A DNA stretch of 32,000 nucleotides. Source: Trichlorobacter lovleyi SZ (GTDB lineage Bacteria > Desulfobacterota > Desulfuromonadia > Geobacterales > Pseudopelobacteraceae). This document shows positions 1 to 30,362 of the stretch, piece after piece. The notes beneath the pieces were generated by a model. That model worked only from the letters and a program-made list of their open reading frames with translations. It searched no databases and was not told the origin of the DNA. The position numbers were made by a program, and so were the translations under genes. The stretch spans positions 1,740,001 through 1,772,000 of the forward strand of contig NC_010814.1 of NCBI RefSeq assembly GCF_000020385.1. Reading direction: 5' to 3'. Position 1 is the first letter of the stretch, and the number at the start of each line of letters is the position of its first letter.

Positions 1-2411
1 TCGGACTTGATGAAAATGACATGGATACGGTTTTCAGCACCCGCCGTCATTATCTGCAGCATGCCTCCCTGCGTCAGTTTTTGACTGTCCTGCAAGAGAC
101 CTATTGTCGTGAAATTGGTGTGGAGTTCATGCATATCCAGAACCCTGATGAGCGGCAGTGGCTGATTAACCGGATGGAGCCTGTTTTGAACCGTCCGCAA
201 CTGAGCGTGGCAGAACGGCTACTGGTGATGAAAAAGCTGCATGAGGCAGTTTTGTTCGAATCTTTCCTTCATCGCAAGTTCCCCGGTCAGAAGCGTTTTT
301 CGCTTGAAGGGGGAGAGTCCCTGATACCGGTTCTGGAGATTCTGGTGCAGGCCTGCTCTCAGGCAGGGGTGACGGATTTAGTGATGGGAATGGCCCACCG
401 GGGACGTCTGAATGTACTGGCCTCCATTTTTGGTAAGCCCTATGAAGCTATCTTTGCTGAGTTCAGAGAAGCCGAAGCCGTTACTAACGGTTTCGCTGGT
501 GATGGTGACGTCAAGTATCATAAGGGCTATTCTACGGACCGTCAGCTTTCAGACGGTATGCTCCATCTGGTACTTGCCTCGAACCCCAGCCATCTGGAGG
601 CGGTGGATCCGGTGTTGGAGGGGAAGTGCAGGGCGCGTCAGGACCGTTACGGAACTGATGGGGAAAAGCGGGTGCTTCCGCTCCTGATTCATGGTGATGC
701 CGCTTTTTCCGGGCAGGGGTTGGTGGCAGAGGTTTTGAATATGTCCCAGCTCGACGGGTACCGTACCGGGGGCACGATTCATATTGTCATAAATAACCAG
801 ATCGGCTTTACTACGTTCCCCCGCGATGCCCGTTCAAGCCGCTATGCTACCGATGTTGCCAAGCTGCTCGCCTGTCCGATTTTTCATGTGCATGGGGAAT
901 CTCCCGAGGCTGCAGTTCATTGTGTCAGGCTGGCTCTGGACTATCGTCAATCCTTTGCGCGGGATGTTGTGCTTGAGTTGATCTGTTTCCGTCGTCGCGG
1001 CCATAATGAAGGTGATGAACCGTTCTTTACCCAGCCGGTCATGTACCGCACAATTGCTGAACGACCAGCAGTGAACCGGATCTATGCCGATAAACTTGTT
1101 GAATCAGGGATTGAGCGGGTGTTGTTGGATGATATGGCTACTCAGATAACGAACCGTCTGGATGCAGCTTTTGCAGCTTTGATACCGGAACTGCGATCCA
1201 TTAGCATCGGGTTCAAGGAGCAGTGGCAGGATCTGGGACGGGAATATCAACCGTATGATCAATCTACCGGCTTACCAGTTATACGCCTGAGGCACCTGGC
1301 AGATGAGATTACCACCATGCCGGACCATTTCAGGCCCCATCCCAAACTGGCGACCCTGCTTGAAAAACGGCAAGAGTCGCTACAGGATGGTATTGGCATC
1401 GACTGGGGGACTGCCGAGACGCTGGCCTATGCCTCATTACTCTCCGAAGGTCACTCAATCCGCCTTTCCGGTCAGGATTCCCGGCGTGGTACCTTTAATC
1501 ATCGCCATGCAGTGCTGTATGATCTTGATGACGGCCGCCCCTTTATCCCTCTGCAAAAAAGTGCTGCTGCCGGAGGAAGTAGTTTTCAAGTCTATGACAG
1601 TCTACTGTCAGAAAACGGTGTGCTTGGGTTTGAGTATGGCTACTCGCTTGAAACACCAAATGGACTTACCCTTTGGGAGGCTCAGTTCGGTGATTTTGCC
1701 AATGGGGCTCAAGTGATCATTGACCAGTTCATCGCCAGCGGCGAGACCAAGTGGAACCGTGCCAGCGGTCTGGTTATGCTGTTACCTCACGGCTATGAAG
1801 GGCAGGGGGCTGAACACTCCAGTGCCCGGATTGAACGCTATCTGCAGTTGTGTGCCAGGAACAACCTGGTTGTTACCCAACCGTCAACCCCTGCCCAGGT
1901 TTTCCATCTGTTGAGGCGCCAGCTTAAGCAACCGTTCCGGAAGCCGTTGATCGTATTTACACCCAAATCGCTTTTGCGAAATCCTCTTTGCAGCTCTTCT
2001 CTGGATGAGCTGATGGAAGGGAGCCGTTTTCAGGAGCTGCTGATTAGTGGAAATTTGCATACGGCGCGCCGCTTATTGATTTGCAGTGGCAAAATTTACT
2101 ATGAATTGCTGCGCAGGATAGCCGAACAGGGGAATGACGACGTTGCTGTGATCAGAGTTGAGCAGTTGTATCCGTTACGCACAGACTTGTTGCAGAATGC
2201 CCTGCTGCGATGCTCACCCGGAACAGAGCGGCTCTGGGTCCAGGAAGAACCTGAAAATATGGGGGCCTGGAGCTTCATGCAGCAGCATTTGCAGGCACTG
2301 CCAGGTTCCCTGCGTTTTGTCGGTCGTGAAGCTGACAGTTGTCCTGCCGTTGGTTATCACCGTCTGCATGACGAGCAGCAGCAGATGATACTTGCGAGAG
2401 CGTGCAGCTAA
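1..2411 (+). CDS. sucA: 2-oxoglutarate dehydrogenase E1 component, 5' end cut by window edge
   Basis: The frame is open from nt 3 (GLDENDMDTV...), so the ATG at 21 is internal. E1o signature stretches are present: GMAHRGRLNVL, GDVKYHKGYS, LLIHGDAAFSGQGLV, EAQFGDFANGAQVIIDQFIASGETKW, LLPHGYEGQGAEHSSARIERYLQ. Stop TAA at 2409-2411. Confidence 0.92.
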   Translation, partial: GLDENDMDTVFSTRRHYLQHASLRQFLTVLQETYCREIGVEFMHIQNPDERQWLINRMEPVLNRPQLSVAERLLVMKKLHEAVLFESFLHRKFPGQKRFSLEGGESLIPVLEILVQACSQAGVTDLVMGMAHRGRLNVLASIFGKPYEAIFAEFREAEAVTNGFAGDGDVKYHKGYSTDRQLSDGMLHLVLASNPSHLEAVDPVLEGKCRARQDRYGTDGEKRVLPLLIHGDAAFSGQGLVAEVLNMSQLDGYRTGGTIHIVINNQIGFTTFPRDARSSRYATDVAKLLACPIFHVHGESPEAAVHCVRLALDYRQSFARDVVLELICFRRRGHNEGDEPFFTQPVMYRTIAERPAVNRIYADKLVESGIERVLLDDMATQITNRLDAAFAALIPELRSISIGFKEQWQDLGREYQPYDQSTGLPVIRLRHLADEITTMPDHFRPHPKLATLLEKRQESLQDGIGIDWGTAETLAYASLLSEGHSIRLSGQDSRRGTFNHRHAVLYDLDDGRPFIPLQKSAAAGGSSFQVYDSLLSENGVLGFEYGYSLETPNGLTLWEAQFGDFANGAQVIIDQFIASGETKWNRASGLVMLLPHGYEGQGAEHSSARIERYLQLCARNNLVVTQPSTPAQVFHLLRRQLKQPFRKPLIVFTPKSLLRNPLCSSSLDELMEGSRFQELLISGNLHTARRLLICSGKIYYELLRRIAEQGNDDVAVIRVEQLYPLRTDLLQNALLRCSPGTERLWVQEEPENMGAWSFMQQHLQALPGSLRFVGREADSCPAVGYHRLHDEQQQMILARACS

Positions 2412-2432
2412 AATCTTCTTGGCCTGGTTGTG

Positions 2433-2461
2433 TTGACAAGCGTTGGTCCCCCATGTAAAAA
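2433..2461 (+). promoter_or_regulatory. Candidate sigma70-type promoter (TTGACA-N17-TAAAAA) for the 2492 cassette
   Basis: TTGACA at 2433-2438, 17-nt spacer, TAAAAA at 2456-2461, about 30 nt upstream of the ATG at 2492. Sequence match only. Confidence 0.35.
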
Positions 2462-2473
2462 AGATTAATCTTT
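2460..2473. promoter_or_regulatory. Perfect 14-bp palindrome AAAGATTAATCTTT overlapping the putative -10/+1 region
   Basis: Read directly: 2460-2473 equals its own reverse complement. The position suggests an operator; its function is not established. Confidence 0.3.
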
Positions 2474-2491
2474 CTAAGAAAACAGGTACGC

Positions 2492-3868
2492 ATGATCAAT
2501 CTGCTTTTCATATCTAATAGTCCGCGGGCAGAGCTGCTGCGGGTACACTTTCAACAGATACTTAAGATCCGTATTGATGTGGTTGAAGATTTTGATCACG
2601 GTCTGAAAGACGTCTTTGAAAAACGCCCGGTAACTGTCTGTATCCAGGATCAGATTGTCGGCGTAACCGGTGAGAGTGTAGCGCGTCATATCCAGTTACT
2701 GCTGGGAAATGCTGCTCCCAGCTTTGTCCTGATGCATGAGGGGAACGCGAAAGCTCGCCTTATATCGGGGCTTTTCAATCATCTGATTGACCTTAACGCC
2801 CCCTTTGAGCTGGTCTGTGAAAACCTGCGCAAGGCGTTACAGTCTCTTTTGGGTGAGCAATGGGGCATGGTGTACAATGCACCGCCCGAGCCGGAACCGG
2901 TACAGCCCGAACCCGTTGCAGATCTTGCCCTGGCGGATCAACTGGTAGATGATTTTATTGCTGAAACATCTATCTTTAACCCTCGTAATGCTCCTGCGCT
3001 GCCGACGTTGGAGACTGATTCCACTTTAATCTCAGATAGCCTGATTGAGCGTCACCTGCCCGGCGGACCTCCGGCAGAGCCAGATGCAGCACGAACTGAA
3101 CCGTTAGAACCGTCTGAGATAGTACCGTCTGCCGAATCTCCGGTACTTGAACATAAACCGTTGGTGGAACTGGAACAGCAACGGCCGGTCCGTCAGGTTC
3201 GGCAGACCCCGCCTGCACCTCCGGAACTAAAACATCTACCGGTTGAGTCCGATGATGGATCGGTGCCGGTGGAAGAGCTGCTGCAGGCCTTTGAGGAAAA
3301 CTACCGTAGTCGAAAACGCCTGATCTGGCGAGTTTGTGGTGCGGCAGTGGTAATGCTGCTGGCTGGATTATTGCTGTTTTGGATGAAGCAACGGGGCGGA
3401 ACCCCCAAAGCGCCTCCTCCGGCTGGCAGACAACAGCTGTCATCGGTTCAATCGCAGCAACCGGTGGTGCAGCCGACTGTCAGCTCAGCCGGACGGCCAG
3501 TTGCACAAAAGACGGATTCGCTCCCTTCATTTATCCCGGCAAATAGGCGCGATGCTGCCTACTCCAATAAAAAGCCGGGTTGGTCCCGCTACCAGTCAGA
3601 GAAGCGGGATTACCGCCTGTTTCATGCTGATGGGCGATTAAAGGCACTGCAAGTGCTTGTTCTCGGAGACGGCAGTATCGCCCCGGCAGAGCTGAAACGG
3701 ATCTTGCGCGAGCTGGCCGGTACTGATCAGTTTCTTGTTGACCGCAAGGAGCTAAAGGCGGGCGTGTGGCTTGAACGCGCGAAACTCTCCGGCCAGGGGG
3801 ACTTGTTGATTTATCGTTCAAAGGCAAACGGGCCGATCAAGGCCTTTGTGTTTGCACGTACGCCATGA
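2492..3868 (+). CDS. Hypothetical bitopic membrane protein (receiver-like N-terminal domain, Pro/Glu-rich linker, one TM helix, C-terminal periplasmic domain)
   Basis: 458-aa ORF starting at an ATG. The N terminus MINLLFISNSPRAELL... resembles CheY beta1/alpha1 but lacks the acidic pair. A long PEPEP/PAPPE-type linker follows. There is a single hydrophobic helix (CGAAVVMLLAGLLLFWM). The stop overlaps the next ATG (ATGA at 3865-3868). I recognise no family. Confidence 0.6.
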   Translation: MINLLFISNSPRAELLRVHFQQILKIRIDVVEDFDHGLKDVFEKRPVTVCIQDQIVGVTGESVARHIQLLLGNAAPSFVLMHEGNAKARLISGLFNHLIDLNAPFELVCENLRKALQSLLGEQWGMVYNAPPEPEPVQPEPVADLALADQLVDDFIAETSIFNPRNAPALPTLETDSTLISDSLIERHLPGGPPAEPDAARTEPLEPSEIVPSAESPVLEHKPLVELEQQRPVRQVRQTPPAPPELKHLPVESDDGSVPVEELLQAFEENYRSRKRLIWRVCGAAVVMLLAGLLLFWMKQRGGTPKAPPPAGRQQLSSVQSQQPVVQPTVSSAGRPVAQKTDSLPSFIPANRRDAAYSNKKPGWSRYQSEKRDYRLFHADGRLKALQVLVLGDGSIAPAELKRILRELAGTDQFLVDRKELKAGVWLERAKLSGQGDLLIYRSKANGPIKAFVFARTP

Positions 3869-5190
3869 GGGTGTTATCTGCCATGATTTTATTGCGCTTT
3901 TCTTTGTTGCCACTACTTTCTCTACTCTTGATTGCCGCTCTTCTGTCCACCGGTTGCTGGGCCATGGATCCCCGCTTTGAGCTGGACCCCGCGCAAGTAC
4001 AAAAGAAATCAATCCATACTGATGGTCCCAAGAAGCCTGCTCGCAGGGCATCCCGCCGGTCAGCCAAGACTCAACGCGGAGTCCTGGCATTGCATAAACA
4101 TGCTGTTGAAAAAGAACAGCCCGGTTCAGTCCTGCAGTTGGCTGCAGCAGGTTCTCCTGCTGCCCCTGACCAGCAGCAGATACGTGTATTCTGGGATAAG
4201 CTGGTTCCGGCAGGTATGTCTGCACCGCAGCCGCTGATCTTTAAATCAGAAGTATTCGATCTTGCAATCGACCCGACTCGCTACCCGCTGCTCAAGGCCG
4301 CTGATGGTCGTACGTTGCTGCTGGATACCGGCGGGACGCTGCCTCCGCTGGTGCGTACACTGATTCAGGAAAAAGATCCTGGTATCCGTATCATAACGGC
4401 CTCACCTGCAGATGGACGCCGGTTTCTGGGAGAACTTCTTGCGTCGGGAGGGTTTTATTCGGTTGAGGAGCAACCGGTAATGACCTTTGGTAAAGACCCG
4501 CAGTTAAAGGTACGCAGTGATTTTAAGGTTGAGCAGAGCGCAGAGAGTGTCATGCGCAATGAGGTGATGCTGATCAGTGCCGCCCGGCAGGGATACCCAC
4601 TCCGTTTGACTGAATACCTGAAAGGGCAGGGGGTGAAACTGCTTGAACCGTTTGCTGAACAATCCGCTTCCCCGGTTCCGTTACGACACCGGGTGGTTCG
4701 TACTGCCTCCCATGATCCTGCACAGGTTATTGACCTACTGCTTGAGACTCTGGCTGCGCCCGCTGAACGCAATAAGCGTGTTGAGTTGTTCAAGACTGCA
4801 GAAAGCGGTATCGGACTTTCTGTAGCAGCAGAGCGCTACTTTGAACGGGGTGGCCGCCGTTATGTAGTGGCGCGTTTTACCGGTGATCCGATTACCTATA
4901 CCTTGTTTCGACTCCTGGAAACCAAGGGGTATCGGGTAGTCATTCTTGAACCCCATGATAGCTTTAACACGGTGGCGAGCAAGTTGTTGTCCCGGATGGA
5001 TCTGCCTTCACGTTATTCAACCCATCAACTGATGACAGGCCCTGGGGGGCAGTATTCATTTGAAATGTCCGGGTTTATGCTTGAAAATACGGCGTCAGAT
5101 GGTGGTTCTGTCATGCTGACAGATAGACCGATTGAGTCTGCCATGCGTGAACTTTTGTACGATCATGGCTATCAGGTGCAGGAGCGATAG
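3865..5190 (+). CDS. Hypothetical exported protein (signal peptide, possible lipoprotein)
   Basis: 441-aa ORF with N terminus MRVLSAMILLRFSLLPLLSLLLIAALLSTGCWAMD: a hydrophobic core followed by STGC / CWA, which is a non-canonical lipobox or an SPase I site. Its start is coupled to the upstream stop by ATGA. I recognise no family. An alternative start is the ATG at 3883. Confidence 0.6.
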   Translation: MRVLSAMILLRFSLLPLLSLLLIAALLSTGCWAMDPRFELDPAQVQKKSIHTDGPKKPARRASRRSAKTQRGVLALHKHAVEKEQPGSVLQLAAAGSPAAPDQQQIRVFWDKLVPAGMSAPQPLIFKSEVFDLAIDPTRYPLLKAADGRTLLLDTGGTLPPLVRTLIQEKDPGIRIITASPADGRRFLGELLASGGFYSVEEQPVMTFGKDPQLKVRSDFKVEQSAESVMRNEVMLISAARQGYPLRLTEYLKGQGVKLLEPFAEQSASPVPLRHRVVRTASHDPAQVIDLLLETLAAPAERNKRVELFKTAESGIGLSVAAERYFERGGRRYVVARFTGDPITYTLFRLLETKGYRVVILEPHDSFNTVASKLLSRMDLPSRYSTHQLMTGPGGQYSFEMSGFMLENTASDGGSVMLTDRPIESAMRELLYDHGYQVQER

Positions 5191-5197
5191 GGCAGAC

Positions 5198-7132
5198 ATG
5201 ATTACCAAACGTCTTGGAGAACTGTTGATTGAACAGGGCCTCATCAGCCAGGAACAACTGGATGAGGCACTTGAAATGCAGAAAATGTTTCCGGATCAGA
5301 CCGTAGGGCAGCTGTTATGTCGTCTGGGGTACATCCGGGAGAGTGACCTGTCATTGGTACTGGACCAGAAGAACAAGCGCCGTAAACTGGCCGATATTCT
5401 GTTGAAGGAAGGTATGATTGACCAGCAAAAGCTTTCCCAGGCCCGTGAGCTGAGTCGCCAGAATGATATCCCGCTTGAACGGGCTTTGTTGAAGCTGCGC
5501 TTTATTGATGAAGAACAGCTTGCCCGGTCTGTTGCAGCACAATTTGACCTGCCCTATGTAGAAATTCATTCCATCAGCCTGGATCCTGATCTGTCTCGCT
5601 ATATCAGCTCGGTATATGCCCAGAAACATATGCTGGTGCCAATTTCAATGATCGGCAATACCTTGACGCTGGCCATGGCTCAACCGTTACGGCATCATGA
5701 TATCAGGCAGCTTGAGGATAATATCCGTCTTAAGATTATCTCGGTAATCGCCTCTGAAGCCAGTGTCCAGCGTGCCCTCAAAATGCTCTATAGAGTCGAT
5801 CTCTCATCCAGCAGCAGCGCCATGGACGAGGTAAATCTCGATCTGGTGCCGGACAGCATTTCCGAGCTGTTGAACAAAACCTCGGCTATCGATGAACCGG
5901 AGGTTGAGGAGGAGGTTCGCAAGGTAACGGAAAAAGACTCCGTTATTGTCAAGCTGGTTAACAAGATTATTTATGACGCCTATATGAAGAAGGCGTCAGA
6001 TATCCATATTGAACCATATCCAGGTAAGCGTGATGTAACGGTCCGTATCAGGATTGACGGACAATGCCTCGTCTACCAGAAAATACCCTACAAATATAAG
6101 TTTGCTATTCCTTCACGGATCAAGATCATGGCAGATCTTGATATTGCTGACCGCCGCAGGCCGCAGGATGGCAAGATCGATTTTAAAAAGTTCGGACCTC
6201 TTGATATTGAGCTGCGGGTTGCCACGATGCCCACGGTGGGACAGTTGGAGGATGTCGTCATTCGTATCCTGACCAGCGGTGAGCCGATATCGTTTAATCA
6301 GTTGGGCCTGACCGAGCGCAATCAACAGGTTTTTGAGCGTTGTCTGCAAAGCCCGTATGGTCTGGTGCTGGTGGTTGGGCCTACCGGCTCTGGTAAGACC
6401 ACGACACTGCATTCAGGGTTGGCCATGATCAACTCGTCAAACCGCAAAATCTGGACCGCGGAAGATCCTGTTGAGATCACTCAGATCGGTTTGCGTCAGG
6501 TCCAGATCAACCCCAAAATAGGTTTTACCTTTGCCTCTGCGTTGCGTTCGTTTCTGCGTCTTGACCCGGATGTAATCATGGTTGGTGAGATGCGGGATGA
6601 AGAAACAGCAGGCATTGCGGTGGAAGCCTCGTTAACCGGCCATCTTGTTTTTTCTACTCTACATACCAACTCTGCCCCTGAAACCGTTTCCCGCCTGTTG
6701 GAGATCGGGTTGGATCCCTACAGCTTTTCAGATTCATTGCTGTGTGTCTTGGCACAGCGCCTGGCCCGGCGATTGTGTTCGCATTGCAAGGAAGTGTACG
6801 TGCCGACTCAAGCAGAGTTGGATGAGTTGTTGGAAGAGTATGGGCGTGACGCCTTTGCTGGTACCGGTATTGATCTGAAGAGTATTACCTTGGCGCGAGC
6901 ACATGGTTGTGAACAGTGCGGACAGTCCGGCTATCATGGCCGATTGGGGATTCACGAAGTTCTGGATGCCTCTGATCATCTTAAATATCTGATTAAGCGA
7001 CGAGCCGATACTGATGACATTCGTCTCCAGGCCATACAGGACGGCATGACCAGTCTTAAGCAGGATGGTATTTTGAAAGTTTTGCAAGGTTTGACAGATA
7101 TTCATGAGGTTAGGAGGGTTTGCATCAAGTAA
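5198..7132 (+). CDS. PilB/GspE/MshE-family secretion ATPase with extended MshEN-type N terminus (second extension-type ATPase in the window)
   Basis: Walker A GPTGSGKTTT, Walker B DPDVIMVGEMRD, His box TGHLVFSTLHTN, tetracysteine CSHC...CEQC, T2SSE_N-like region FDLPYVEIHSISL...LVPIS. The N terminus starts MITKRLGELLIEQGLISQEQLDEALEMQ. I prefer the ATG at 5198 (GGAG at 5181-5184) over the track start at 5132, which would overlap the upstream gene by 59 nt. Confidence 0.9.
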   Translation: MITKRLGELLIEQGLISQEQLDEALEMQKMFPDQTVGQLLCRLGYIRESDLSLVLDQKNKRRKLADILLKEGMIDQQKLSQARELSRQNDIPLERALLKLRFIDEEQLARSVAAQFDLPYVEIHSISLDPDLSRYISSVYAQKHMLVPISMIGNTLTLAMAQPLRHHDIRQLEDNIRLKIISVIASEASVQRALKMLYRVDLSSSSSAMDEVNLDLVPDSISELLNKTSAIDEPEVEEEVRKVTEKDSVIVKLVNKIIYDAYMKKASDIHIEPYPGKRDVTVRIRIDGQCLVYQKIPYKYKFAIPSRIKIMADLDIADRRRPQDGKIDFKKFGPLDIELRVATMPTVGQLEDVVIRILTSGEPISFNQLGLTERNQQVFERCLQSPYGLVLVVGPTGSGKTTTLHSGLAMINSSNRKIWTAEDPVEITQIGLRQVQINPKIGFTFASALRSFLRLDPDVIMVGEMRDEETAGIAVEASLTGHLVFSTLHTNSAPETVSRLLEIGLDPYSFSDSLLCVLAQRLARRLCSHCKEVYVPTQAELDELLEEYGRDAFAGTGIDLKSITLARAHGCEQCGQSGYHGRLGIHEVLDASDHLKYLIKRRADTDDIRLQAIQDGMTSLKQDGILKVLQGLTDIHEVRRVCIK

Positions 7133-7140
7133 CAACAGTT

Positions 7141-7173
7141 ACCAGAGGATGATGCATATTGTGTCTGGTTTTT
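7141..7173 (+). terminator. Weak candidate intrinsic terminator after the ATPase gene
   Basis: ACCAGA (7141-7146) pairs with TCTGGT (7164-7169) around a 17-nt loop, followed by a T run to 7173. The stem is short and the loop long, so confidence is low. Confidence 0.25.
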
Positions 7174-7215
7174 GAAGTGCCACACTATCTAGTGTTAATT
7201 TTTCTATTTTTATAT

Positions 7216-7229
7216 AATTTTATAAAATT
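7216..7229. promoter_or_regulatory. Perfect 14-bp AT palindrome AATTTTATAAAATT abutting the -35 box
   Basis: Read directly: self-complementary, and it ends 2 nt before the TTGACA at 7232. Could be an UP-element-like or operator sequence. Confidence 0.3.
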
Positions 7230-7231
7230 TG

Positions 7232-7259
7232 TTGACAAAGAATAAAAACGCGCTAAACA
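7232..7259 (+). promoter_or_regulatory. Candidate sigma70-type promoter (TTGACA-N16-TAAACA) for XRE-pilMNOPQ
   Basis: TTGACA at 7232-7237 and TAAACA at 7254-7259, inside a markedly AT-rich 158-nt gap, about 32 nt upstream of the ATG at 7291. Confidence 0.35.
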
Positions 7260-7262
7260 GGA

Positions 7263-7282
7263 CACAACTTGTCAGAGTTGTG
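7263..7282. promoter_or_regulatory. Inverted repeat CACAACT-N6-AGTTGTG between the putative -10 and the XRE start codon
   Basis: Perfect 7-bp arms at 7263-7269 and 7276-7282. This is typical geometry for an HTH-dimer operator or a short 5'-UTR hairpin. Confidence 0.3.
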
Positions 7283-7290
7283 AGATACTT

Positions 7291-7497
7291 ATGAAAACAC
7301 CAAACAACGTAAAAATACTGCGAGAAAAAAAGTTGATGAGCAAGTCCGAGCTTGCGCGTAAGGCTGGCGTTTCCACGGTCACCATTGATCGGATAGAACG
7401 TGGCGAAAGCTGTCGACTTGAAACGATGCGCAAGATCATTTTAGCTCTCGGCTATACGCTGGAAGACCGGGATAAGGTATTCCAAGAACAGGGATGA
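7291..7497 (+). CDS. XRE-family helix-turn-helix transcriptional regulator (68 aa)
   Basis: Sequence LREKKLMSKSELARKAGVSTVTIDRIERGESCRLETMRKIILALG fits the HTH_3/Cro-C1 pattern (S-x-x-E-L-A-x-x-x-G-V-S...I-x-x-I-E-R-G). The stop lies 12 nt before pilM. Confidence 0.85.
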   Translation: MKTPNNVKILREKKLMSKSELARKAGVSTVTIDRIERGESCRLETMRKIILALGYTLEDRDKVFQEQG

Positions 7498-7509
7498 CAG
7501 GTACGGGTC

Positions 7510-8568
7510 ATGTTTGGATTATTTAAAAAGAAAAAAGACCTCGTCGGCATCGATATCGGCTCAAGTTCAGTCAAGCTGGTTCAGCTCTGGCAGACAAGAG
7601 ATGGCTACCAGCTGCTGAATGCGGCGATAATGCCACTACCTCCAGAGGCGATTGTTGATAATAGTCTGATGGATACAGCGGCTGTCGTTGATGCCGTTAA
7701 AAACCTCGTGGCAAGCCTGGGTATAAAGTCAAAGGATGTGGCCTGTTCAATTTCCGGTAATGCGGTGATTATCCGTAAAATAATCTTACCTGTCATGACT
7801 TCCGAAGAACTGGAAGATCAGATCAGCTGGGAGGCGGAACAGTACATCCCCTTTGATATCAAAGATGTGCATATTGACTTCCAGATACTTGGGCAAGATT
7901 CTATCGACCCATCAAAGATTCAGGTCCTCTTGGTAGCCAGCAAAAAAGACATCATTAACGATTATGTTGCTTTATTTAATGACGCTGGTTTAAGTCTGAA
8001 TGTTATGGATGTTGATTCATTTGCGGTTCAAAACGCATTTGAGCTTAATACTGAGGTGAGCGACGAAGTCCGGGCACTGGTAAATGTTGGTGCCGGTGTG
8101 ATGAATATCAATGTTGTTAAGGCGGAAACCTCCCTGTTTACCCGCGATGTGCAGATGGGGGGCAACCAGTACACAGAGGAAATTCAAAAACAGCTTGGGG
8201 TCAGCGCACAGGAAGCCGAAACCATGAAGATGCTGGCTGTAGAACAGCAGGGCGGCCCGCTGGCAGATGTTATTGGTCGGGTAAATGACTCGCTGGCTCA
8301 GGAAATCAGGCGGTCGGTTGATTTCTATAACTCAACTGCTTCAGGCGAGGAACGGATTACCCGTGTCAGCATGTGTGGTGGGTGTTCCAAAATGGCAGGT
8401 TTGAAAGAGGCAGTTGCTGCCAAACTGGGAATGGACGTTGAGTTACTGAATCCTTTTGAGCGGATAAAATACGGTGAGAAGGATTTTGATCCTGAGTACC
8501 TTCAGGAGATCGCTCCCTTGATGGCAGTTGGCGTGGGGTTGGCTATACGGAGGGTTGGGGATAAATGA
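7510..8568 (+). CDS. pilM: Type IV pilus assembly protein PilM (actin-like ATPase fold)
   Basis: N terminus ...LVGIDIGSSSVKLVQL (actin-fold phosphate-1 motif), 352 aa, directly followed by pilNOPQ. Its stop overlaps the pilN ATG (ATGA at 8565-8568). Confidence 0.92.
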   Translation: MFGLFKKKKDLVGIDIGSSSVKLVQLWQTRDGYQLLNAAIMPLPPEAIVDNSLMDTAAVVDAVKNLVASLGIKSKDVACSISGNAVIIRKIILPVMTSEELEDQISWEAEQYIPFDIKDVHIDFQILGQDSIDPSKIQVLLVASKKDIINDYVALFNDAGLSLNVMDVDSFAVQNAFELNTEVSDEVRALVNVGAGVMNINVVKAETSLFTRDVQMGGNQYTEEIQKQLGVSAQEAETMKMLAVEQQGGPLADVIGRVNDSLAQEIRRSVDFYNSTASGEERITRVSMCGGCSKMAGLKEAVAAKLGMDVELLNPFERIKYGEKDFDPEYLQEIAPLMAVGVGLAIRRVGDK

Positions 8569-9134
8569 TCAGGATAAACTTACTCCCGGTTCGCGCCGCA
8601 AAAAAGAAAGAGACCGCGCTCCAGCAACTATTCATTCTTGGGGCCAGCGTCGTAGTTGTTTTAGTTGTTGTGGTGGCTCTCTGGCTGGTAAAGCTGGGGC
8701 AGATCTCTGGGACACAGAAAGATATTGCTGAAGCAAATAAACGAATTAGTGAATTAAAAGCCAAAATAGGTAAGCTTAATGAAATTAAAAAGTTAAAAGA
8801 TGAGGTCAAGAAAAAACTTGATGTGCTCACTGAGTTAAGGAAGAACAAAACCGGTCCTGCAACACGCTTGGCTACCTTAAGTGATGTCACTCCTGATCAG
8901 CTCTGGCTTGAGAGCTATAAGGAGGCTGGCTCTGACATCAGGATTAGTGGACTGGCGTATAATGAAGAACTGATAGCTCAATTTATACGTGCATTGGAAG
9001 CTTCGTCCGAGTATGAGAAGGTAGATCTTGTTGTGTCTGAACAAAAAGATGTTAGTGGCACCAAGTTAAAGCGTTTTGATCTGACATTTCGGATAGAATC
9101 AACAAAACCAACCACAGAACCAGTAAAAAAATAA
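8565..9134 (+). CDS. pilN: Type IV pilus assembly protein PilN
   Basis: Conserved N terminus MIRINLLPVR (INLLP motif that binds PilM), one TM helix, a coiled-coil segment, 189 aa, and position between pilM and pilO. Confidence 0.87.
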   Translation: MIRINLLPVRAAKKKETALQQLFILGASVVVVLVVVVALWLVKLGQISGTQKDIAEANKRISELKAKIGKLNEIKKLKDEVKKKLDVLTELRKNKTGPATRLATLSDVTPDQLWLESYKEAGSDIRISGLAYNEELIAQFIRALEASSEYEKVDLVVSEQKDVSGTKLKRFDLTFRIESTKPTTEPVKK

Positions 9135-9167
9135 TACTAAATAACAGACTGGTTAAAGGTACTGGCT

Positions 9168-9773
9168 ATGGATCCCAAAGTTGAACAGCTGCTGAAACTG
9201 CCGAATAAGCAAAAAATTGCCATTTTGGTAGCAGTGGTAGTGCTAGAAGCAGTGGCGCTGGTGTACTTCCTGTATCTGCCCAAACATAAGATGCTGACAG
9301 AGTTAAAGGCTCAACATCAGCAATTACAGGCCGAGGTTGATGAAAATACCAAAATCGCCAATAATCTGCCAAAGATTCAAAAAGAGTATAACGATTTGAA
9401 TCTTGAGCTTGAGAAAGCTTTGACAGAACTGCCCAACTCAAAAGAAATTCCATCGCTTTTAACCAGCATCACAGCCACTGGTAAAAATGCCGGCCTTGAT
9501 TTTCTTGTTTTCAGGCCTAAACCGGAAGTCGTTAAAGATTTTTATGCTGAAGTACCGGTGGATATCACTGTTTCAGGGTCGTACTTCAGTGTTGCCAATT
9601 TTTTTGCCGCAGTAGCCAACCTTCCACGAATTGTCAATATTACCAATGTTGATTTTGCTGAGGTGAGAAGCGTCAATAATCGGATGATGACCAAAGTCAA
9701 TTGTCTTGCTACGACATTCCGGTTCCTTGGCAAGGAAGAGATCAAGAATGACAAGAACAAACCCAAAAAATAG
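9168..9773 (+). CDS. pilO: Type IV pilus assembly protein PilO
   Basis: 201 aa with an N-terminal TM helix (IAILVAVVVLEAVALVYFLYL), a coiled coil, and a C-terminal ferredoxin-like part (EVPVDITVSGSYFSVANFFAAVANLPRIVNI). Position between pilN and pilP. Confidence 0.85.
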   Translation: MDPKVEQLLKLPNKQKIAILVAVVVLEAVALVYFLYLPKHKMLTELKAQHQQLQAEVDENTKIANNLPKIQKEYNDLNLELEKALTELPNSKEIPSLLTSITATGKNAGLDFLVFRPKPEVVKDFYAEVPVDITVSGSYFSVANFFAAVANLPRIVNITNVDFAEVRSVNNRMMTKVNCLATTFRFLGKEEIKNDKNKPKK

Positions 9774-10314
9774 TTTTACTATCATGGGGGGGCTAGTGGC
9801 CCTGCTGGCTGGTCTGATGGTGCTACAGGCCGGTTGTAAAAAGACACCGCCTCCACCGCCACCTCCACCGCCAGCAGTACCTGTTGCTGTTCAGCCAAAG
9901 GTGATTGTGCAGAAAGCTGTCAGTTCAGTTAAAATGGCTCCTGCCCAAACCAACCAGCTTGATTTTAGTACAAAAAAGGACCCGTTCAAGCCCCATATAG
10001 CTGTCAAGGTAGCGACACAGGCTGAGTTGAACAGGCAAAAGCGAGAATTCAGGCCATTACTGCCGTTGCATAGTTTTGATGTCTCTCAGTTCCGTTTGAT
10101 TGGTACTGTTGCTGATCCCAAGGGTAACAAGGCGATGGTGGTTGATCCGGCTGGTAAAGGGTATGTTTTGAAGGTCGGTATGACGATTGGAAAAAACGAG
10201 GGTAAAATCGTCCGAATTGAGACTTCTGGTGTAGATGTTGTTGAGCAGTTTCGTGATGAAAACAACAAAATACGCAAAGAGACAATCCGAATTCCCTTGC
10301 TGCGGAAACCGTAA
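9748..10314 (+). CDS. pilP: Type IV pilus assembly lipoprotein PilP
   Basis: Start chosen at the ATG at 9748 (AAGGAAGAG at 9732-9740), giving MTRTNPKNSFTIMGGLVALLAGLMVLQAGC. This is a signal peptide with Cys, followed by nine consecutive Pro. The C-terminal beta domain FRLIGTVADPKGNKAMVVDPAGKGYVLKVGMTIGKNEGKIVRI is typical of PilP. The track start at 9706 and the ATG at 9784 are alternatives. Confidence 0.78.
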   Translation: MTRTNPKNSFTIMGGLVALLAGLMVLQAGCKKTPPPPPPPPPAVPVAVQPKVIVQKAVSSVKMAPAQTNQLDFSTKKDPFKPHIAVKVATQAELNRQKREFRPLLPLHSFDVSQFRLIGTVADPKGNKAMVVDPAGKGYVLKVGMTIGKNEGKIVRIETSGVDVVEQFRDENNKIRKETIRIPLLRKP

Positions 10315-10326
10315 GGAGTGTTCCCG

Positions 10327-13002
10327 ATGAAATGTATACTTAACATGAAGCCTGTGGTTGCCTTTGCGCTTTGTACTATGCTGACAGTCGGTATGGGGGT
10401 CGGGGCAGGAACGGCCGCAACTGATACGGCACAGAGTGCTTCAGCTCCGGTAACGATTCAGTCTCTGCAGATGAAAGGGGATGGCGCCGGCTCAGAGCTG
10501 ATCATTGCTGCCTCAATGCCTCCAACCTATACCAGCTATAAAACATCTGCTCCACAGCGCTTGGTCGTAGATTTTTCTCAGGCGATACCGGTTGACTCTC
10601 TTTCAGATACTAATTTTGATAAGGGGCCGGTAAAAGGGGTGACCATCAAGCGCTTTGATACTGACGCTGGTGTGTTAACCCGCATGGAAATATTCCTTAC
10701 TCAGGATGTCGACCCGGTTATTACTCCTTCCGTGGATAAAATAGGAGAGTTAAGGATTAGTTTTCCCGGTTTTAAGCCAGATGTTACAGCACCCTCTGCA
10801 AAACAAGAGTCAACAACGGTGGCACAGCCAGAGGCTGCCCTCGCGCCAGTGCTGTCTAAGCCTGAACCCGCAAAAGAAGTAGCACCAAGTACTACTCATG
10901 AAGCCGTTATGCCGGTGATAACTGATGTTGTTGCTCAGGCAGGTGGCATTGCCATTGTGACCCAGACTCCAATTACAGACTATAAAACGTTCCGTTTGAA
11001 TAAGCCTGAACGGGTTGTCGTAGATATTCTCAATGCAAAGTTGAATATGCCTAACAAACTGGTACAACTGAATGTTGCTGGAGTTTCCACAGCTCGTGTC
11101 GGTAGTTACCCGGATAAAGTCAGGGTTGTATTTGATGCAATTAACGGTGCGTTGCCTGAAGCTTCGTTTGACAAGACTCAGACTGGACTCATGGTGCTGT
11201 TTGCTGCCCAAAGCAATGAGAAACAACAACCTGCAGTTGCTGTGGTCACGCAGCCAGAAAAACGTAACGTCGCCATTCCAGTCAAAGAACAGGTAACATC
11301 AGTTCCAAAAGAGGTCGCTTCTAATGCTTCTGCCCAGATGGCAAGTATTGACTTTCAGGTCCTGGGAGATACAAGCCGGGTAACGGTAAAGGTGGTCGGA
11401 TCACCACAAATTGAAGAGCCTGTTAAAAGCTCTGGTTCAGTTTCCTTCAGAATAAAGAATGCGCAACTGTCGCGCGATCTTCAACGTTCACTTGAAGCGC
11501 GTGAGTTTGTCTCGCCGGTTCTGCGGATTACTCCGGTACAGGTGAAGACAAAGACCGGCAATGACATTCTTGTCAGAGTTGCCCTTAAAATGGACAGTGG
11601 ATACGAGTTACGACGTGAGGCTGATCTAGTCTATTTAGATATCAAACATCCTGCAACAATGGCTAAATCAATAGAAACTGCAAAGGGAACAGCAACCCAG
11701 AAGGCTTCGTCAGCTAATGGTTCAAGCGCTCCCAATGCTGGTGACCAGATTGAAAAAGTGGCTGAGCAGGCAGCCCCTGTGTCAGGTAAAGCTCGATACA
11801 ATGGCCGTAAAGTTACGCTTGAATTTGCTGATGCAGAAGTGCGGAAGATATTTCAGCTGTTGTCTGAAGTAAGCAACAAGAACTTTGTTTTGGGTGATGA
11901 AGTAACCGGTACCATCAGCCTCAAATTGGTCAATGTGCCTTGGGACCAAGCACTTGATATTATTCTTGATACCAAGGGCCTTGATAAACGAGAGGAAGGT
12001 ACCATTGTGCTCATCCGAGGCAAGGGTAAGTTTAAATCATTGCTTGACGAAGAGATGGAAATACGCAAGTCCACCTTGAAGAGTGAGCCACTTCAAACCG
12101 CGATGTTCGATGTTAACTATGCAGACCTTGCTAGTATTGTGTCTCAGTTTAATTCTATCAAGACTGACCGTGGCTTGATTACACAAGACCAGCGTACCAA
12201 TAAAGTAATTGTTAAAGATGTTAAGTCTGCTGTTGATGATATGCGCAAAATTCTTGCCAGTCTTGATGTACCTGAAAAGCAGGTTATGATTGAAGCCCGT
12301 ATTGTAGAGGCATCATCGACATTTACCCAATCCTTGGGGGTCAACTGGGGTATCCATTATCGCGACGGTTCAGCAAGTATTGCCGGTATTAACTCAATGG
12401 ATACAAATTTTGGGGGTCTTGCCTCAACTGCGCCTACTTCAAGTGGAGTGAGTGGATCGCCAGGCGCTGCTGCAGGCATTTCGTTTGGTACACTCAGCAG
12501 CAACATCAAGCTTGATCTGCGCCTGAATGCTGCTGTCAGTGCCGGTCTGGTAAGAATTGTCTCCACTCCCCGTGTAGCAACCCTTAACCATAAATCAGCA
12601 AAAATTACGCAAGGGCAGCAGATTCCGTACACCGCTTCTACTTCAGATAAAATTGAAACCAAGTTTGTTGAGGCTGCTCTCGCTCTTGAAGTAACCCCGC
12701 ATATCAACCCGAACGGTACTGTTGTGATGAAGATTGACGCTAAAAACGACTCTCCAGGCTCAACAGGGAACCCACCTGCAATTAACAAAAAACAGGCTAC
12801 TACTGAAATGATGCTGCGAGACGGAGAGACAACGGTCATTGGTGGTATCTTTGTGGAGTCCGAGTCAAACAATGATGACGGCGTACCCTTTTTAGCCGAC
12901 GTGCCATGGCTTGGCGGGCTGTTTAAGTCTAATGAAACAAAACGTAACCGTAACGAGTTACTGATTTTTATTACGCCGAGAATAATTAACTCTAATTCCT
13001 AG
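10327..13002 (+). CDS. pilQ: Type IV pilus secretin PilQ with three AMIN-like N-terminal modules
   Basis: ATG at 10327, 9 nt after AGGAG (10314-10318); the track start at 10318 is a GTG inside the RBS. It has a signal peptide and three AMIN-like repeats (...QRLVVDFSQA, ...ERVVVDILNAKL, ...SVSFRIKNAQL). An N0/secretin-N region follows (VTLEFADAEVRKIFQLLSEVSNKNFVL...VNVPWDQALDIILDTKGL). The C-terminal secretin domain is present (VSTPRVATLNHKSAKITQGQQIPY...GVPFLADVPWLGGLFK...ELLIFITPRII). Confidence 0.93.
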   Translation: MKCILNMKPVVAFALCTMLTVGMGVGAGTAATDTAQSASAPVTIQSLQMKGDGAGSELIIAASMPPTYTSYKTSAPQRLVVDFSQAIPVDSLSDTNFDKGPVKGVTIKRFDTDAGVLTRMEIFLTQDVDPVITPSVDKIGELRISFPGFKPDVTAPSAKQESTTVAQPEAALAPVLSKPEPAKEVAPSTTHEAVMPVITDVVAQAGGIAIVTQTPITDYKTFRLNKPERVVVDILNAKLNMPNKLVQLNVAGVSTARVGSYPDKVRVVFDAINGALPEASFDKTQTGLMVLFAAQSNEKQQPAVAVVTQPEKRNVAIPVKEQVTSVPKEVASNASAQMASIDFQVLGDTSRVTVKVVGSPQIEEPVKSSGSVSFRIKNAQLSRDLQRSLEAREFVSPVLRITPVQVKTKTGNDILVRVALKMDSGYELRREADLVYLDIKHPATMAKSIETAKGTATQKASSANGSSAPNAGDQIEKVAEQAAPVSGKARYNGRKVTLEFADAEVRKIFQLLSEVSNKNFVLGDEVTGTISLKLVNVPWDQALDIILDTKGLDKREEGTIVLIRGKGKFKSLLDEEMEIRKSTLKSEPLQTAMFDVNYADLASIVSQFNSIKTDRGLITQDQRTNKVIVKDVKSAVDDMRKILASLDVPEKQVMIEARIVEASSTFTQSLGVNWGIHYRDGSASIAGINSMDTNFGGLASTAPTSSGVSGSPGAAAGISFGTLSSNIKLDLRLNAAVSAGLVRIVSTPRVATLNHKSAKITQGQQIPYTASTSDKIETKFVEAALALEVTPHINPNGTVVMKIDAKNDSPGSTGNPPAINKKQATTEMMLRDGETTVIGGIFVESESNNDDGVPFLADVPWLGGLFKSNETKRNRNELLIFITPRIINSNS

Positions 13003-13052
13003 CTGCTATCTGTACTCTAGGGTTTGTGAGGTAAACGCGAAAGGAGTGGGGG

Positions 13053-13829
13053 ATGCTGAAAAGTGGATGGAGAGTATTTTTGTCTTGTGTACTGCTGGTA
13101 GTAGTTACTGGCTGCGGTGGTAGCGGCAGTGGTGGCGCAGGGGCTGACTCATCAGCTGGTTCATTGGCATTGGTGGTTGACAAAATCGTTGCAGCTTCAG
13201 GCACTGATACGGTCTCTGCCACCGTGACGCTAACCTCTTTGAATAGCCAGCCAGTGAATGGTGTTACTGTTAACGTTGATATGATTTATAACGGTACCGT
13301 TATTGCCACTTATTCTGGCAATACGAATACTGCTGGCGTTGTGGCAATTCCAGTACCCGTTGGATTGGTGCCTGCTGACCGTACAGTCTATCTGCAGGCC
13401 AAATCAAGCGGTATAACTTCTAGCAGCAGTGTTGCAATTGCAGTAAAGGCGCCGGTGTTGACCGTAACCTTGGCTAATGCCAGTGTAACGGATGTAGCTG
13501 GAGTCACTTTTACTGGTGCTGGTATTAAATTTGCTGATTTTAATGGTAATGGGATAGCCAATACCGCTATTACATTTACCTATACTAGTAACAGTGGATC
13601 TCCAGGCACTCTATCTCATTTAGGAACTCCATTGGCTGTTGGTAATTCATTTACTGTGACAACAGATAGCACTGGTTATGCGACAATTGCACTTGATGGT
13701 GTCATAAATGCAATGCCTCCGTCTGGAAGCTCTGACAGTACTACTTTTAATTACACGGTGTCAGTTGTATATGGTACTTACACCTATACAAAGCAAGGTA
13801 GTGTTTCTGTTACTGTTACTTCTTCTTAA
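13053..13829 (+). CDS. Lipoprotein with two Ig-like (Big_1-like) beta domains, last gene of the pilMNOPQ transcription unit
   Basis: AAGGAG at 13041-13046, ATG at 13053. Canonical lipobox LLVVVTGC followed by a GGSGSGG linker. It is very rich in S/T/V/G/A and poor in charged residues. The stretch DTVSATVTLTSLNSQPVNGVTVNV resembles invasin/intimin-type Big_1 repeats. The gene lies 50 nt after pilQ and 24 nt before the terminator hairpin. Confidence 0.7.
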   Translation: MLKSGWRVFLSCVLLVVVTGCGGSGSGGAGADSSAGSLALVVDKIVAASGTDTVSATVTLTSLNSQPVNGVTVNVDMIYNGTVIATYSGNTNTAGVVAIPVPVGLVPADRTVYLQAKSSGITSSSSVAIAVKAPVLTVTLANASVTDVAGVTFTGAGIKFADFNGNGIANTAITFTYTSNSGSPGTLSHLGTPLAVGNSFTVTTDSTGYATIALDGVINAMPPSGSSDSTTFNYTVSVVYGTYTYTKQGSVSVTVTSS

Positions 13830-13852
13830 AATTAATCTGAATAGTAAGATTC

Positions 13853-13898
13853 AAACAGACAACGCCGATGGAATAAATTTCATCGGCGTTGTCTGTTT
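13853..13898. terminator. Bidirectional intrinsic terminator between convergent operons
   Basis: A perfect 18-bp stem, AAACAGACAACGCCGATG (13853-13870) with CATCGGCGTTGTCTGTTT (13881-13898), and a 10-nt loop. T-rich on the plus strand (GTCTGTTTGG) and, read on the minus strand, followed by TTTGAAT. Confidence 0.8.
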
Positions 13899-13957
13899 GG
13901 GATGCATTAGTACCTATAAGTTTATTAGTGACTTAATGATGTCTGATGTGAATGAAT

Positions 13958-14167
13958 TTAAGCATCAGGTCTTATTCTGACCACCTGGTGGACGCCAGGC
14001 ATGGCGGAAATGATGGATTCTTCCAATGTGTGGGTATCACCAATGACTCCGATGATTGTACGGTCTGCGCCGGTTGACTGGTGGAAATCAAAACCGTTAG
14101 TAACCAAGAATTCCTTTACATGATCCAACGCCTCTTCCGGGGCATTTTTTTTTGTAATAATCAGCAT
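13958..14167 (-). CDS. Stand-alone ferredoxin-like/ACT-type regulatory domain of type I-beta DAH7P synthase (69 aa; orphan domain or 5' remnant of aroF)
   Basis: MLIITKKNAPEEALDHVKEFLVTNGFDFHQSTGADRTIIGVIGDT...VHQVVRIRPDA aligns, from memory, position for position with the N-terminal regulatory domain of Thermotoga-type DAH7PS (MIVVLKPGSTEEDIRKVV...ERTVIGIIGDD...VESVVRVLKPYK). It stops exactly where the linker to the TIM barrel would begin. The ATG overlaps the chorismate mutase stop (ATGCTGA). Confidence 0.6.
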   Translation of the reverse strand: MLIITKKNAPEEALDHVKEFLVTNGFDFHQSTGADRTIIGVIGDTHTLEESIISAMPGVHQVVRIRPDA

Positions 14168-14448: not shown

Positions 14449-14459
14449 TGGTACCTCGC

Positions 14460-22673: not shown

Positions 22674-22685
22674 GGAGTCACTTTT

Positions 22686-23777: not shown

Positions 23778-23805
23778 CCGGACACGATTCTGAAGGAGGA
23801 ACAGC

Positions 23806-25020: not shown

Positions 25021-25023
25021 CTG

Positions 25024-28018: not shown

Positions 28019-28086
28019 CTATCTCAGACTTCCCCTCGCAATCACGCTATGGTATACAACCGTTTACTCCACTTAAGGAATAGTCT

Positions 28087-29996: not shown

Positions 29997-29999
29997 TAT

Positions 30000-30353: not shown

Positions 30354-30362
30354 GGAGGCACT

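Follow-up and report, generated by a model that had tools for sequence, protein, structure and literature searches.

Why does a region with one set of type IV pilus genes encode a second PilB-type extension ATPase, and why is the gene for this ATPase packed behind two genes for uncharacterised envelope proteins? These questions are raised by a stretch of 32,000 nucleotides (nt) from Trichlorobacter lovleyi SZ (NC_010814.1; the species was formerly named Geobacter lovleyi), which was analysed as a whole and is called the window below. Three genes on its forward strand make up the cassette studied here: ORF1 (2492-3868), predicted to encode a 458-amino-acid (aa) bitopic inner-membrane protein composed of a pseudo-receiver, a linker, a transmembrane helix and a periplasmic domain; ORF2 (3865-5190), encoding a 441-aa exported protein modelled as tandem alpha/beta modules; and ATPase2 (5198-7132), encoding a 644-aa PilB-type extension ATPase that is a paralogue of the canonical PilB encoded at 20967-22673. 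Our results indicate that the three tightly packed genes are a real, conserved operon. What is new is that a motor of the type IV filament kind has two dedicated partners from novel families; the superfamily of ATPase2 itself is of a known kind. In the searchable literature, neither a description of this cassette nor a characterised counterpart in G. sulfurreducens was found.

A conserved three-gene operon of Geobacterales

A scan of one genome per species revealed 96 relatives of ORF2, and the locus counts given below rest on 80 retrieved loci. Nearly all of these loci carry names of the Geobacterales/Desulfuromonadales type (Trichlorobacter, Pelotalea, Oryzomonas and many metagenome-assembled genomes (MAGs)), and one belongs to a MAG labelled Pedobacter. 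ATPase2 was located directly 3' of ORF2 in 79 of the 80 loci, which upholds the proposal of an earlier sequence-only reading of the window that the three genes form a conserved module. A homologue of ORF1 was present in 71 loci and, under a strict adjacency test, lay directly 5' of ORF2 in 52, and sucA was found upstream in 44. The median identity to the T. lovleyi proteins was 36% for ORF1, 42% for ORF2 and 74% for ATPase2. All three genes recur in at least 80 species-level genomes. The cassette is a unit of three genes that has been inherited vertically in Geobacterales. The sole locus of the 80 in which no ATPase follows ORF2 comes from a MAG of an uncultured Pelobacter sp. (L060, 6117-7424) and lacks it despite 2.7 kb of downstream sequence.

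Reading the sequence confirmed the positions previously given for the three genes, the overlap of the ORF1 stop and the ORF2 start in ATGA (3865-3868), and the ATPase2 ATG at 5198, 7 nt past the ORF2 TAG (5188-5190). The overlap depends on the start chosen for ORF2, since an alternative in-frame ATG at 3883, which is preceded by GAGGG and is the start of several close homologues (e.g. P0001 and P0002), would turn it into a 14-nt gap and leave the tight packing unaffected. The start of ATPase2 is backed by the sequence MITKRLGELL, which aligns with the MshEN motif that opens canonical PilB. Overlaps or gaps of 7-13 nt were restricted to the Trichlorobacter clade, the gaps in other clades being about 90-150 nt. 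The product of ORF1 is 100% identical to a T. lovleyi hypothetical protein.

A possible sigma-70-like promoter (TTGACA-17 nt-TAAAAA, 2433-2461, forward strand) can be read from the sequence 5' of ORF1, and it is not listed under a stricter scan rule. The site exists, as had been noted before, but the statement that it is the only one has no statistical support: 7 consensus promoter-like sites were found against 4.7 +/- 1.9 expected in shuffles, some of them inside the cassette, and the promoter and terminator scan gave no enrichment over shuffled sequence. A GEMM-type riboswitch for cyclic di-GMP (c-di-GMP) or cyclic GMP-AMP (cGAMP) before the cassette or before pilM was also considered and rejected, as there were zero Rfam matches in the window.

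The genes downstream of the cassette differ among the relatives. In T. lovleyi, an AT-rich intergenic gap of 158 nt (7133-7290, with TTGACA at ~7232) divides the cassette from a unit consisting of a helix-turn-helix (HTH) gene and pilMNOPQ. This HTH-pilMNOPQ unit follows the cassette in 12 of the 80 loci, all in the Trichlorobacter clade; rimP-nusA take this place in 46 loci, other housekeeping genes (gltX, pheA/tyrA/aroA and others) in 18 and a contig end in 3, the one remaining locus being that in which the ATPase is not adjacent to ORF2. The expectation that the cassette would be conserved beside pil genes in relatives therefore largely failed, and the adjacency to pilMNOPQ is a peculiarity of the Trichlorobacter clade that is not general. 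In three loci of the clade whose ORF2 proteins bear LysM, pilNOPQ lie just upstream of sucA; the pil linkage thus recurs in two arrangements (12 loci downstream and 3 upstream of sucA) and is a minority pattern. In addition, the GC content is 0.49-0.56 in the cassette (2001-7000) and 0.43-0.48 in HTH-pilMNOPQ and the following gene (7001-14000), suggesting that the pil block differs in history from the cassette or was moved beside it; in view of this drop, the adjacency in T. lovleyi possibly came about through rearrangement. The link of the cassette to the adjacent PilMNOPQ is weakly supported.

The PilB-type ATPase of the operon

ATPase2 matched the Pfam family T2SSE (PF00437) over residues 245-640 with an E value of 7.5e-119 (397 bits against a cutoff of 24.9), and the MshEN domain was also found. 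In the catalytic core (5930-7117, forward strand, placed by Pfam and motif reading), we located Walker A (GPTGSGKT) at 6377-6400, the Asp box (TAEDPVE) at 6455-6475, Walker B (DPDVIMVGEMRD) at 6563-6598, the His box (TGHLVFSTLHT) at 6635-6667, and the two CxxC pairs, CSHC and CEQC, at 6776-6787 and 6908-6919, all on the forward strand and all by motif reading. The T2SSE match and the full set of catalytic motifs bear out the claim that this gene encodes a complete ATPase of the PilB/GspE/MshE type.

Residues 5-57 (5210-5368, forward strand) contain a predicted MshEN-type c-di-GMP motif, which was recognised by NF053729 with 75.6 bits against a cutoff of 38 and is kept in 75 orthologues. Such a motif is defined by two 24-residue motifs of the form RLGxx(L/V/I)(L/V/I)xxG(L/V/I)(L/V/I)xxxxLxxxLxxQ and a spacer of 5 residues, both of which ATPase2 possesses. 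A second stretch matching NF053729, residues 63-115 (5384-5542, forward strand), is an extra degenerate copy of the motif; it aligns with the N terminus of canonical PilB, which has a single copy.

The identity between ATPase2 and the canonical PilB (20967-22673) is 39%. Under the PilB equivalog model (TIGR02538), ATPase2 scored 558 bits, below the cutoff of 675.65, and canonical PilB scored 844; ATPase2 also remained below the cutoffs of the GspE equivalog (TIGR02533, 473 bits against 630) and of the TfpB equivalog (NF053534, 428 bits against 850). The nearest sequences in the PDB were the type IVa pilus (T4aP) PilB proteins of M. xanthus, G. sulfurreducens and G. metallireducens, with 401-416 bits, and GspE gave 336 bits, so the earlier assignment to the extension-type ATPases agrees with scores that lie nearer to T4aP PilB than to GspE. 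Judged by these profile scores, ATPase2 is a member of the T2SSE/MshEN superfamily that lies outside the PilB, GspE and TfpB equivalogs, and it would represent a distinct and apparently active PilB-type paralogue, closer to T4aP PilB than to GspE.

Several PilB/GspE paralogues exist in Geobacter genomes, with five in G. sulfurreducens (PMC8557921), for which the literature lists the PilB paralogues GSU0328, GSU0435/mshE, GSU1783 and GSU2609 without data on this cassette. Such a supply of paralogues, together with the failure to reach the PilB equivalog cutoff, would fit an ATPase2 that serves a type II secretion system (T2SS) or another type IV filament system elsewhere in the genome, with ORF1 and ORF2 as unrelated neighbours kept in place by operon inertia. 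We regard this scenario as highly improbable, because ATPase2 has stayed adjacent in 79 of 80 loci, although ORF2 varies in identity (34-66%) and the neighbourhood has changed many times, which would hardly be expected in the absence of functional coupling, and because ATPase2 scores higher against PilB than against GspE.

ORF1, a predicted membrane-anchored pseudo-receiver

Profile searches placed neither ORF1 nor ORF2 in a Pfam or NCBIfam family above cutoff and found no sequence relative of either in the PDB, in agreement with the earlier remark that no family could be recognised for the two products. The Pfam and NCBIfam scans gave sub-threshold noise only (CTV_P33, and GltJ through the Pro-rich linker), and the PDB searches with the two family profiles returned nothing except a low-complexity match to FAM155A. 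The structure of ORF1 discussed here is an AlphaFold2 model built from 40 homologues.

In this model, residues 1-127 (2492-2872, forward strand) adopt a receiver (CheY-like) fold with a predicted local distance difference test score (pLDDT) of >90. Foldseek matched the N-terminal model to Spo0F, TrrA, CheB, KdpE, DivK and FrzS with target template-modelling (TM) scores of 0.7-0.83, E values of about 1e-4 to 1e-5 and a root-mean-square deviation (rmsd) of 2.4-3.6 A, and the pseudo-receiver structures of FrzS, a pilus regulator of M. xanthus, were among the best matches. The catalytic residues have been lost. The homologues carry S-(N/D) at the position of the acidic pair, 79 of them have D, 36 have E and 1 has N where the phospho-acceptor is expected, the Thr position is occupied by His, and the Lys position by Asp/Leu; Pfam gave no Response_reg (PF00072) match at E up to 0.1. 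Because the receiver fold is kept and the phosphorylation residues are not, the N-terminal domain is, as far as the model can tell, a pseudo-receiver. The earlier reading of the T. lovleyi protein was right in proposing a first strand like that of CheY, with the acidic pair replaced by SN.

The pseudo-receiver is followed by a disordered linker (residues 128-258; 18% Pro, 12% Glu). Within it, an acidic amphipathic helix with the sequence ADQLVDDFI (residues 145-158, 2924-2965, forward strand) is conserved in the homologue alignment and appears in the model at low confidence (pLDDT about 50). When a home-made pattern was used, this type of motif was detected in 86 of 119 ORF1 homologues of the ATPase-linked clade and in 0 of 3 ORF1-like proteins without the ATPase, and the helix is a candidate docking motif. 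At residues 258-300 (3263-3391, forward strand), conservation, the model and hydrophobicity indicated a juxtamembrane helix, LLQAFEENYRS, and then a transmembrane helix; the long modelled helix at 260-301 contains the sole hydrophobic segment of the protein, 276-300. An orientation with the N terminus inside is favoured because the basic cluster RSRKR precedes the transmembrane helix.

Beyond a Pro/Gln-rich stretch that is disordered in the model, ORF1 ends in a beta-rich domain, predicted to be periplasmic, of three strands, a helix and four strands (residues 345-458, 3524-3865, forward strand; pLDDT >90). It is the part that ORF1 has in common with its ATPase-less relatives. Its fold was left unassigned because receiver domains filled the best 50 Foldseek matches of ORF1 both in the PDB and in the viral library. 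From the domain plan drawn up earlier, the N-terminal domain, the Pro/Glu linker and the single transmembrane helix can be retained, and the C-terminal domain has to be shortened from ~150 to ~115 aa.

ORF2, an exported multi-module protein

The N terminus of ORF2 is a hydrophobic signal peptide (residues 1-33) ending at CWA/MDP, and the mature N terminus, MDPRFELDP, is strongly conserved among homologues. A basic disordered stretch (residues 47-99) leads to a globular body of 337 aa (residues 105-441, pLDDT >90), which was modelled as three or four tandem alpha-beta-beta-beta-alpha-beta modules. The signal-like N terminus, the Lys/Arg-rich stretch and the globular part of ~350 aa that the sequence-only reading had described are all recovered here. 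Most homologues are ~510 aa long and have a LysM domain (PF01476) where T. lovleyi has its short basic stretch, and in the T. lovleyi protein no LysM match was found with Pfam at E up to 0.1. These features show a Sec-exported protein, multi-module according to the model, that carries LysM in most lineages. The possibility that ORF2 is a lipoprotein was rejected, as the Cys of STGC is not conserved and the signal peptides of relatives end in an AxA-type site.

No structure in the PDB matched ORF2 at E <1e-3 in Foldseek. The best PDB matches were to the periplasmic three-motif region of PrgH over 244-299 columns and were weak (E 2e-3, probability 0.6-0.7, rmsd ~23 A), so that a ring-building ORF2, as the model would suggest, is a lead and not a finding. 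Single ORF2 modules matched PD-(D/E)xK-like folds about equally well. A PD-(D/E)xK nuclease was set aside, given that the protein is exported and that there is no obvious nuclease signature in its invariant columns. Comparisons with hhalign detected no significant internal repeats among the ORF2 modules and no significant match between them and the C-terminal domain of ORF1.

ORF1/ORF2-like pairs without the ATPase

Is the pair of envelope proteins merely an accessory of the motor? A profile search of 1.84 billion representative proteins with an E-value limit of 1e-3 yielded 440 ORF2 relatives, 91 of which also passed a limit of 1e-30. The distant relatives (337-426 aa) consist of LysM and the last two modules and come from Geotalea daltonii, G. 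toluenoxydans, Geotalea sp. SG265 and Geomonas azotofigens; an ORF1-like gene lies before them in each of the four contexts examined. In hhalign, the C-terminal domain of ORF1 matched a 376-aa protein of Geotalea with a probability of 99.8%, and hmmsearch found this domain with E values of 1e-28 to 1e-32 in four loci (L084, L088, L090 and L091) and of 6e-29 in L093. The N termini of these ORF1-like proteins are predicted pseudo-receivers, with hmmsearch E values of 1e-9 to 1e-17 in three of four and similarity by eye in the fourth. No PilB-like ATPase was adjacent to any of the pairs examined. There are also forms encoded by a single gene (599-677 aa), with no ORF1-like gene beside them. These findings show that ORF1 and ORF2 are an older pair able to exist without the ATPase, and the persistence of such pairs suggests that the two proteins work together.

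The observations on the surroundings of the ATPase-less pairs refer to 8745-13008 in L090, 6172-10435 in L091 and 8288-9010 in L093. The neighbours of the pairs include an SLT lytic transglycosylase in L090, L091 and L093, a PBP1A-type transglycosylase/transpeptidase in L090 and L091 and a LysM-TPR protein in L084 and L088, and in L090 PilZ and GGDEF genes lie within 7 kb of the pair. Since ATPase-less pairs exist beside lytic transglycosylase and PBP genes, the pair has an independent role that goes beyond anchoring the ATPase. Both helix motifs described above, ADxLVDDF (145-158) and LLxAFEENY (258-275), are conserved in the ATPase-linked ORF1 clade and absent from the three ATPase-less proteins. 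In L093 (Geomonas azotofigens), genes for a 356-aa PilT-like T2SSE ATPase and a 572-aa PatA_N protein (11771-14648, reverse strand) lie ~3.5 kb from the pair, which may be a coincidence.

These neighbourhoods bear on the main rival to a role at the pilus, which is that the cassette is an envelope module independent of pili. Under this scenario, a c-di-GMP-gated ATPase2 would act through ORF1 on a peptidoglycan-bound ORF2, without PilC or PilMNOPQ, and would drive or signal a process of the cell wall or envelope, for example the local remodelling of peptidoglycan, the export of matrix or anchoring. The triplet stands by itself and in most cases lies in housekeeping neighbourhoods, ORF1/ORF2-like pairs adjoin SLT and PBP1A genes, with PilZ and GGDEF genes near in L090, relatives of ORF2 carry LysM, and ORF2 shows a weak likeness to three tandem ring-building motifs of PrgH, all of which would be expected of such a module. 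However, to our knowledge every characterised PilB/GspE-type ATPase works through a GspF/PilC-type platform, and none is present in the cassette; moreover, the structural match to the ring protein is weak (E 2e-3, rmsd 23 A), and no candidate substrate is evident. We therefore consider a pilus-independent module somewhat unlikely. Clearly unlikely, in our estimation, is an envelope-spanning machine without a PilC-type platform in which a c-di-GMP-gated PilB-type hexamer, seated on a pseudo-receiver anchor, would pass force or a signal across the inner membrane to a possibly ring-forming and mostly peptidoglycan-bound periplasmic protein. If true, it would be a new use of a type IV filament motor outside filament assembly.

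The SLT genes beside the ATPase-less pairs would also suit a factor resembling ExeA/ExeB (GspA/GspB), which would open or organise peptidoglycan for the assembly of PilQ or another secretin. The two would follow the same logic, in which an ATPase is combined with a bitopic membrane protein and with a periplasmic part that binds peptidoglycan, the cassette adjoins pilMNOPQ in Trichlorobacter, and pilQ is nearby in three other loci. Nevertheless, the cassette proteins are unrelated in sequence to ExeA (an AAA+ protein with PF01471) and to ExeB, ATPase2 is of the PilB type, and the ORF2 of T. lovleyi has lost LysM, making such a factor very doubtful.

A possible role at the type IVa pilus machine

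The window had been said to hold two extension ATPases, one PilC, one PilT and no pilin, and our scan is consistent with this count, as no prepilin motif of the G-F-T-L-I-E type was found in any of its frames. Examination of the neighbouring genes in two relatives revealed none for PilC/GspF or a pilin, either within the cassette or next to it. These neighbourhoods and the motif scan of the window sustain the view that a platform protein, a pilin and a secretin are all missing from the cassette, and it is for this reason that the resident T4aP machine is the most probable target of the motor.

The answer that we tentatively favour, as plausible without being firm, is that ORF1 and ORF2 constitute a peptidoglycan-associated envelope scaffold which tethers ATPase2, and that ATPase2 acts on the T4aP machine of the cell. 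In this scheme, the older periplasmic pair would provide the peptidoglycan-associated scaffold, probably held together by a contact of the ORF1 C-terminal domain with ORF2. In the clade that contains T. lovleyi, the cytoplasmic face of ORF1, that is, the pseudo-receiver and the ADxLVDDF and LLxAFEENY helices, would tether ATPase2 to the membrane, the clade-specific motifs serving as candidate docking sites. Binding of c-di-GMP to the MshEN domain would gate the motor, which would most probably serve the single T4aP machine (PilC/PilMNOPQ) as an additional ATPase for extension or assembly, in the way that TfpB works beside PilB. Points in favour of this scheme are the conserved order of the genes, the intact catalytic motifs and the conserved MshEN motif of ATPase2, the two cytoplasmic ORF1 motifs found in the ATPase-linked clade only, the pil linkage in two arrangements and the precedent of TfpB.

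Several points weigh against this scaffold-and-motor scheme. The majority of the cassettes, 64 of 80, adjoin rimP-nusA or other housekeeping genes and not pil genes, and in T. lovleyi the drop in GC content across HTH-pilMNOPQ suggests that a rearrangement brought the two units together. As a rule, an extension ATPase serves the one machine to which it belongs (PMC11656802), and the identity of ATPase2 to the resident PilB is a mere 39%. The SLT and PBP1A neighbours of the ATPase-less pairs point to a role at the peptidoglycan in which pili are not necessarily involved. The correlation between the helix motifs and the ATPase comes from home-made patterns and three ATPase-less proteins only, Foldseek gave no confident structural relative for either ORF2 or the C-terminal domain of ORF1, and every contact in the proposed model is one that we infer.

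Geobacterales are models for pilus- and nanowire-dependent extracellular electron transfer, and their genomes contain spare PilB paralogues without an assigned role. One of these paralogues is now defined as travelling with two dedicated envelope proteins, and the cassette is a concrete candidate for coupling c-di-GMP to the assembly of pili or of the envelope. In addition, ORF1 and ORF2 represent two new protein families that could be named.

Other genes of the pil region

The HTH gene of the window (7291-7497, forward strand) encodes a 68-aa XRE/HTH_3 protein; it comes after the 158-nt gap and lies 13 nt upstream of pilM. This protein is 82-97% identical in 12 of 12 loci of the Trichlorobacter clade, always with pilM as the next gene. 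For so small a regulator such conservation is unusually high, and a dedicated role in the control of pilMNOPQ is possible. The PilM encoded at 7510-8568 matched PilM_2 in Pfam with an E value of 2.5e-82. Directly after pilQ lies a gene (13053-13829, forward strand) whose 258-aa product is rich in Gly, Ser and Thr, begins like a lipoprotein (VVTGC) and has only a weak match to Big_1 (E 0.004); in locus L025, pilQ is also followed by an ORF, of 225 aa and without a Pfam match. Further downstream, the stretch 20967-31439 comprises the pilB-pilT-pilC-pilS-pilR cluster and, after it, genes whose translations resemble by eye those of dTDP-sugar (rfbB/rfbD-type) and mannose-1-phosphate guanylyltransferase genes. 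From the arrangement in G. sulfurreducens, one would expect pilA at this place.

Comparison with known systems

With the c-di-GMP ATPases of the PilB/MshE/PilF type, ATPase2 shares the T2SSE core and its full set of catalytic motifs, the two pairs of CxxC and both 24-residue motifs of MshEN. However, ATPase2 lies below the equivalog cutoffs and has an extra degenerate MshEN copy, and its gene sits with two genes for uncharacterised envelope proteins instead of with pilT/pilC or msh genes. The precedent for a second motor is Acinetobacter baylyi, in which PilB and TfpB are two extension ATPases of one T4aP machine (PMC11656802). Like TfpB, ATPase2 is a second PilB-type ATPase in a region with one PilC and one PilMNOPQ set, whereas TfpB, as far as it has been described (PMC11656802), is without partners resembling ORF1 and ORF2. 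ATPase2 itself fails the TfpB model.

With regard to the periplasmic side, the repeated alpha-beta-beta-beta-alpha-beta units of ORF2 recall the ring-building motifs of PrgH/YscD, proteins of the inner-membrane ring of the type III secretion system, the best PDB match being the PrgH three-motif region; the scores, however, are weak, PD-(D/E)xK folds match single modules about equally well, and no sequence repeat is detectable. The LysM of ORF2 relatives and the idea of a peptidoglycan-anchored scaffold near a pilus machine are shared with FimV/HubP and TsaP. FimV has a long acidic Pro/Glu-rich cytoplasmic region, as in the ORF1 linker. By contrast, there is no sequence similarity to these proteins, the ORF2 of T. 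lovleyi is without LysM, and the parts are divided between two proteins; among the best 50 PDB matches of ORF2 in Foldseek, no structure of TsaP or FlgT was present.

On the cytoplasmic side, ORF1 has the topology of the anchors GspL (T2SS), PilM+PilN (T4aP), and TcpR and BfpC (both of type IVb pili), namely a cytoplasmic domain, one transmembrane helix and a periplasmic domain, and its gene likewise stands beside that of an extension ATPase. GspL, TcpR, BfpC and the atypical receiver domain of TadZ tether their ATPases. The suggestion that ORF1 is an anchor like GspL or PilM+PilN is correct with respect to this topology and not with respect to the fold, since the cytoplasmic domain of ORF1 is modelled as a receiver and not as an actin-like or GspL fold, and Pfam gave no T2SSL or PilM_2 match. 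Closest in kind are FrzS of M. xanthus and the atypical receiver of TadZ/CpaE. These proteins are soluble, with a C-terminal coiled coil and a ParA-like ATPase, respectively, whereas ORF1 is predicted to be membrane-anchored and to have a periplasmic domain; yet ORF1 likewise has a modelled receiver fold with a non-canonical active site, and FrzS and TadZ localise or activate pilus ATPases.

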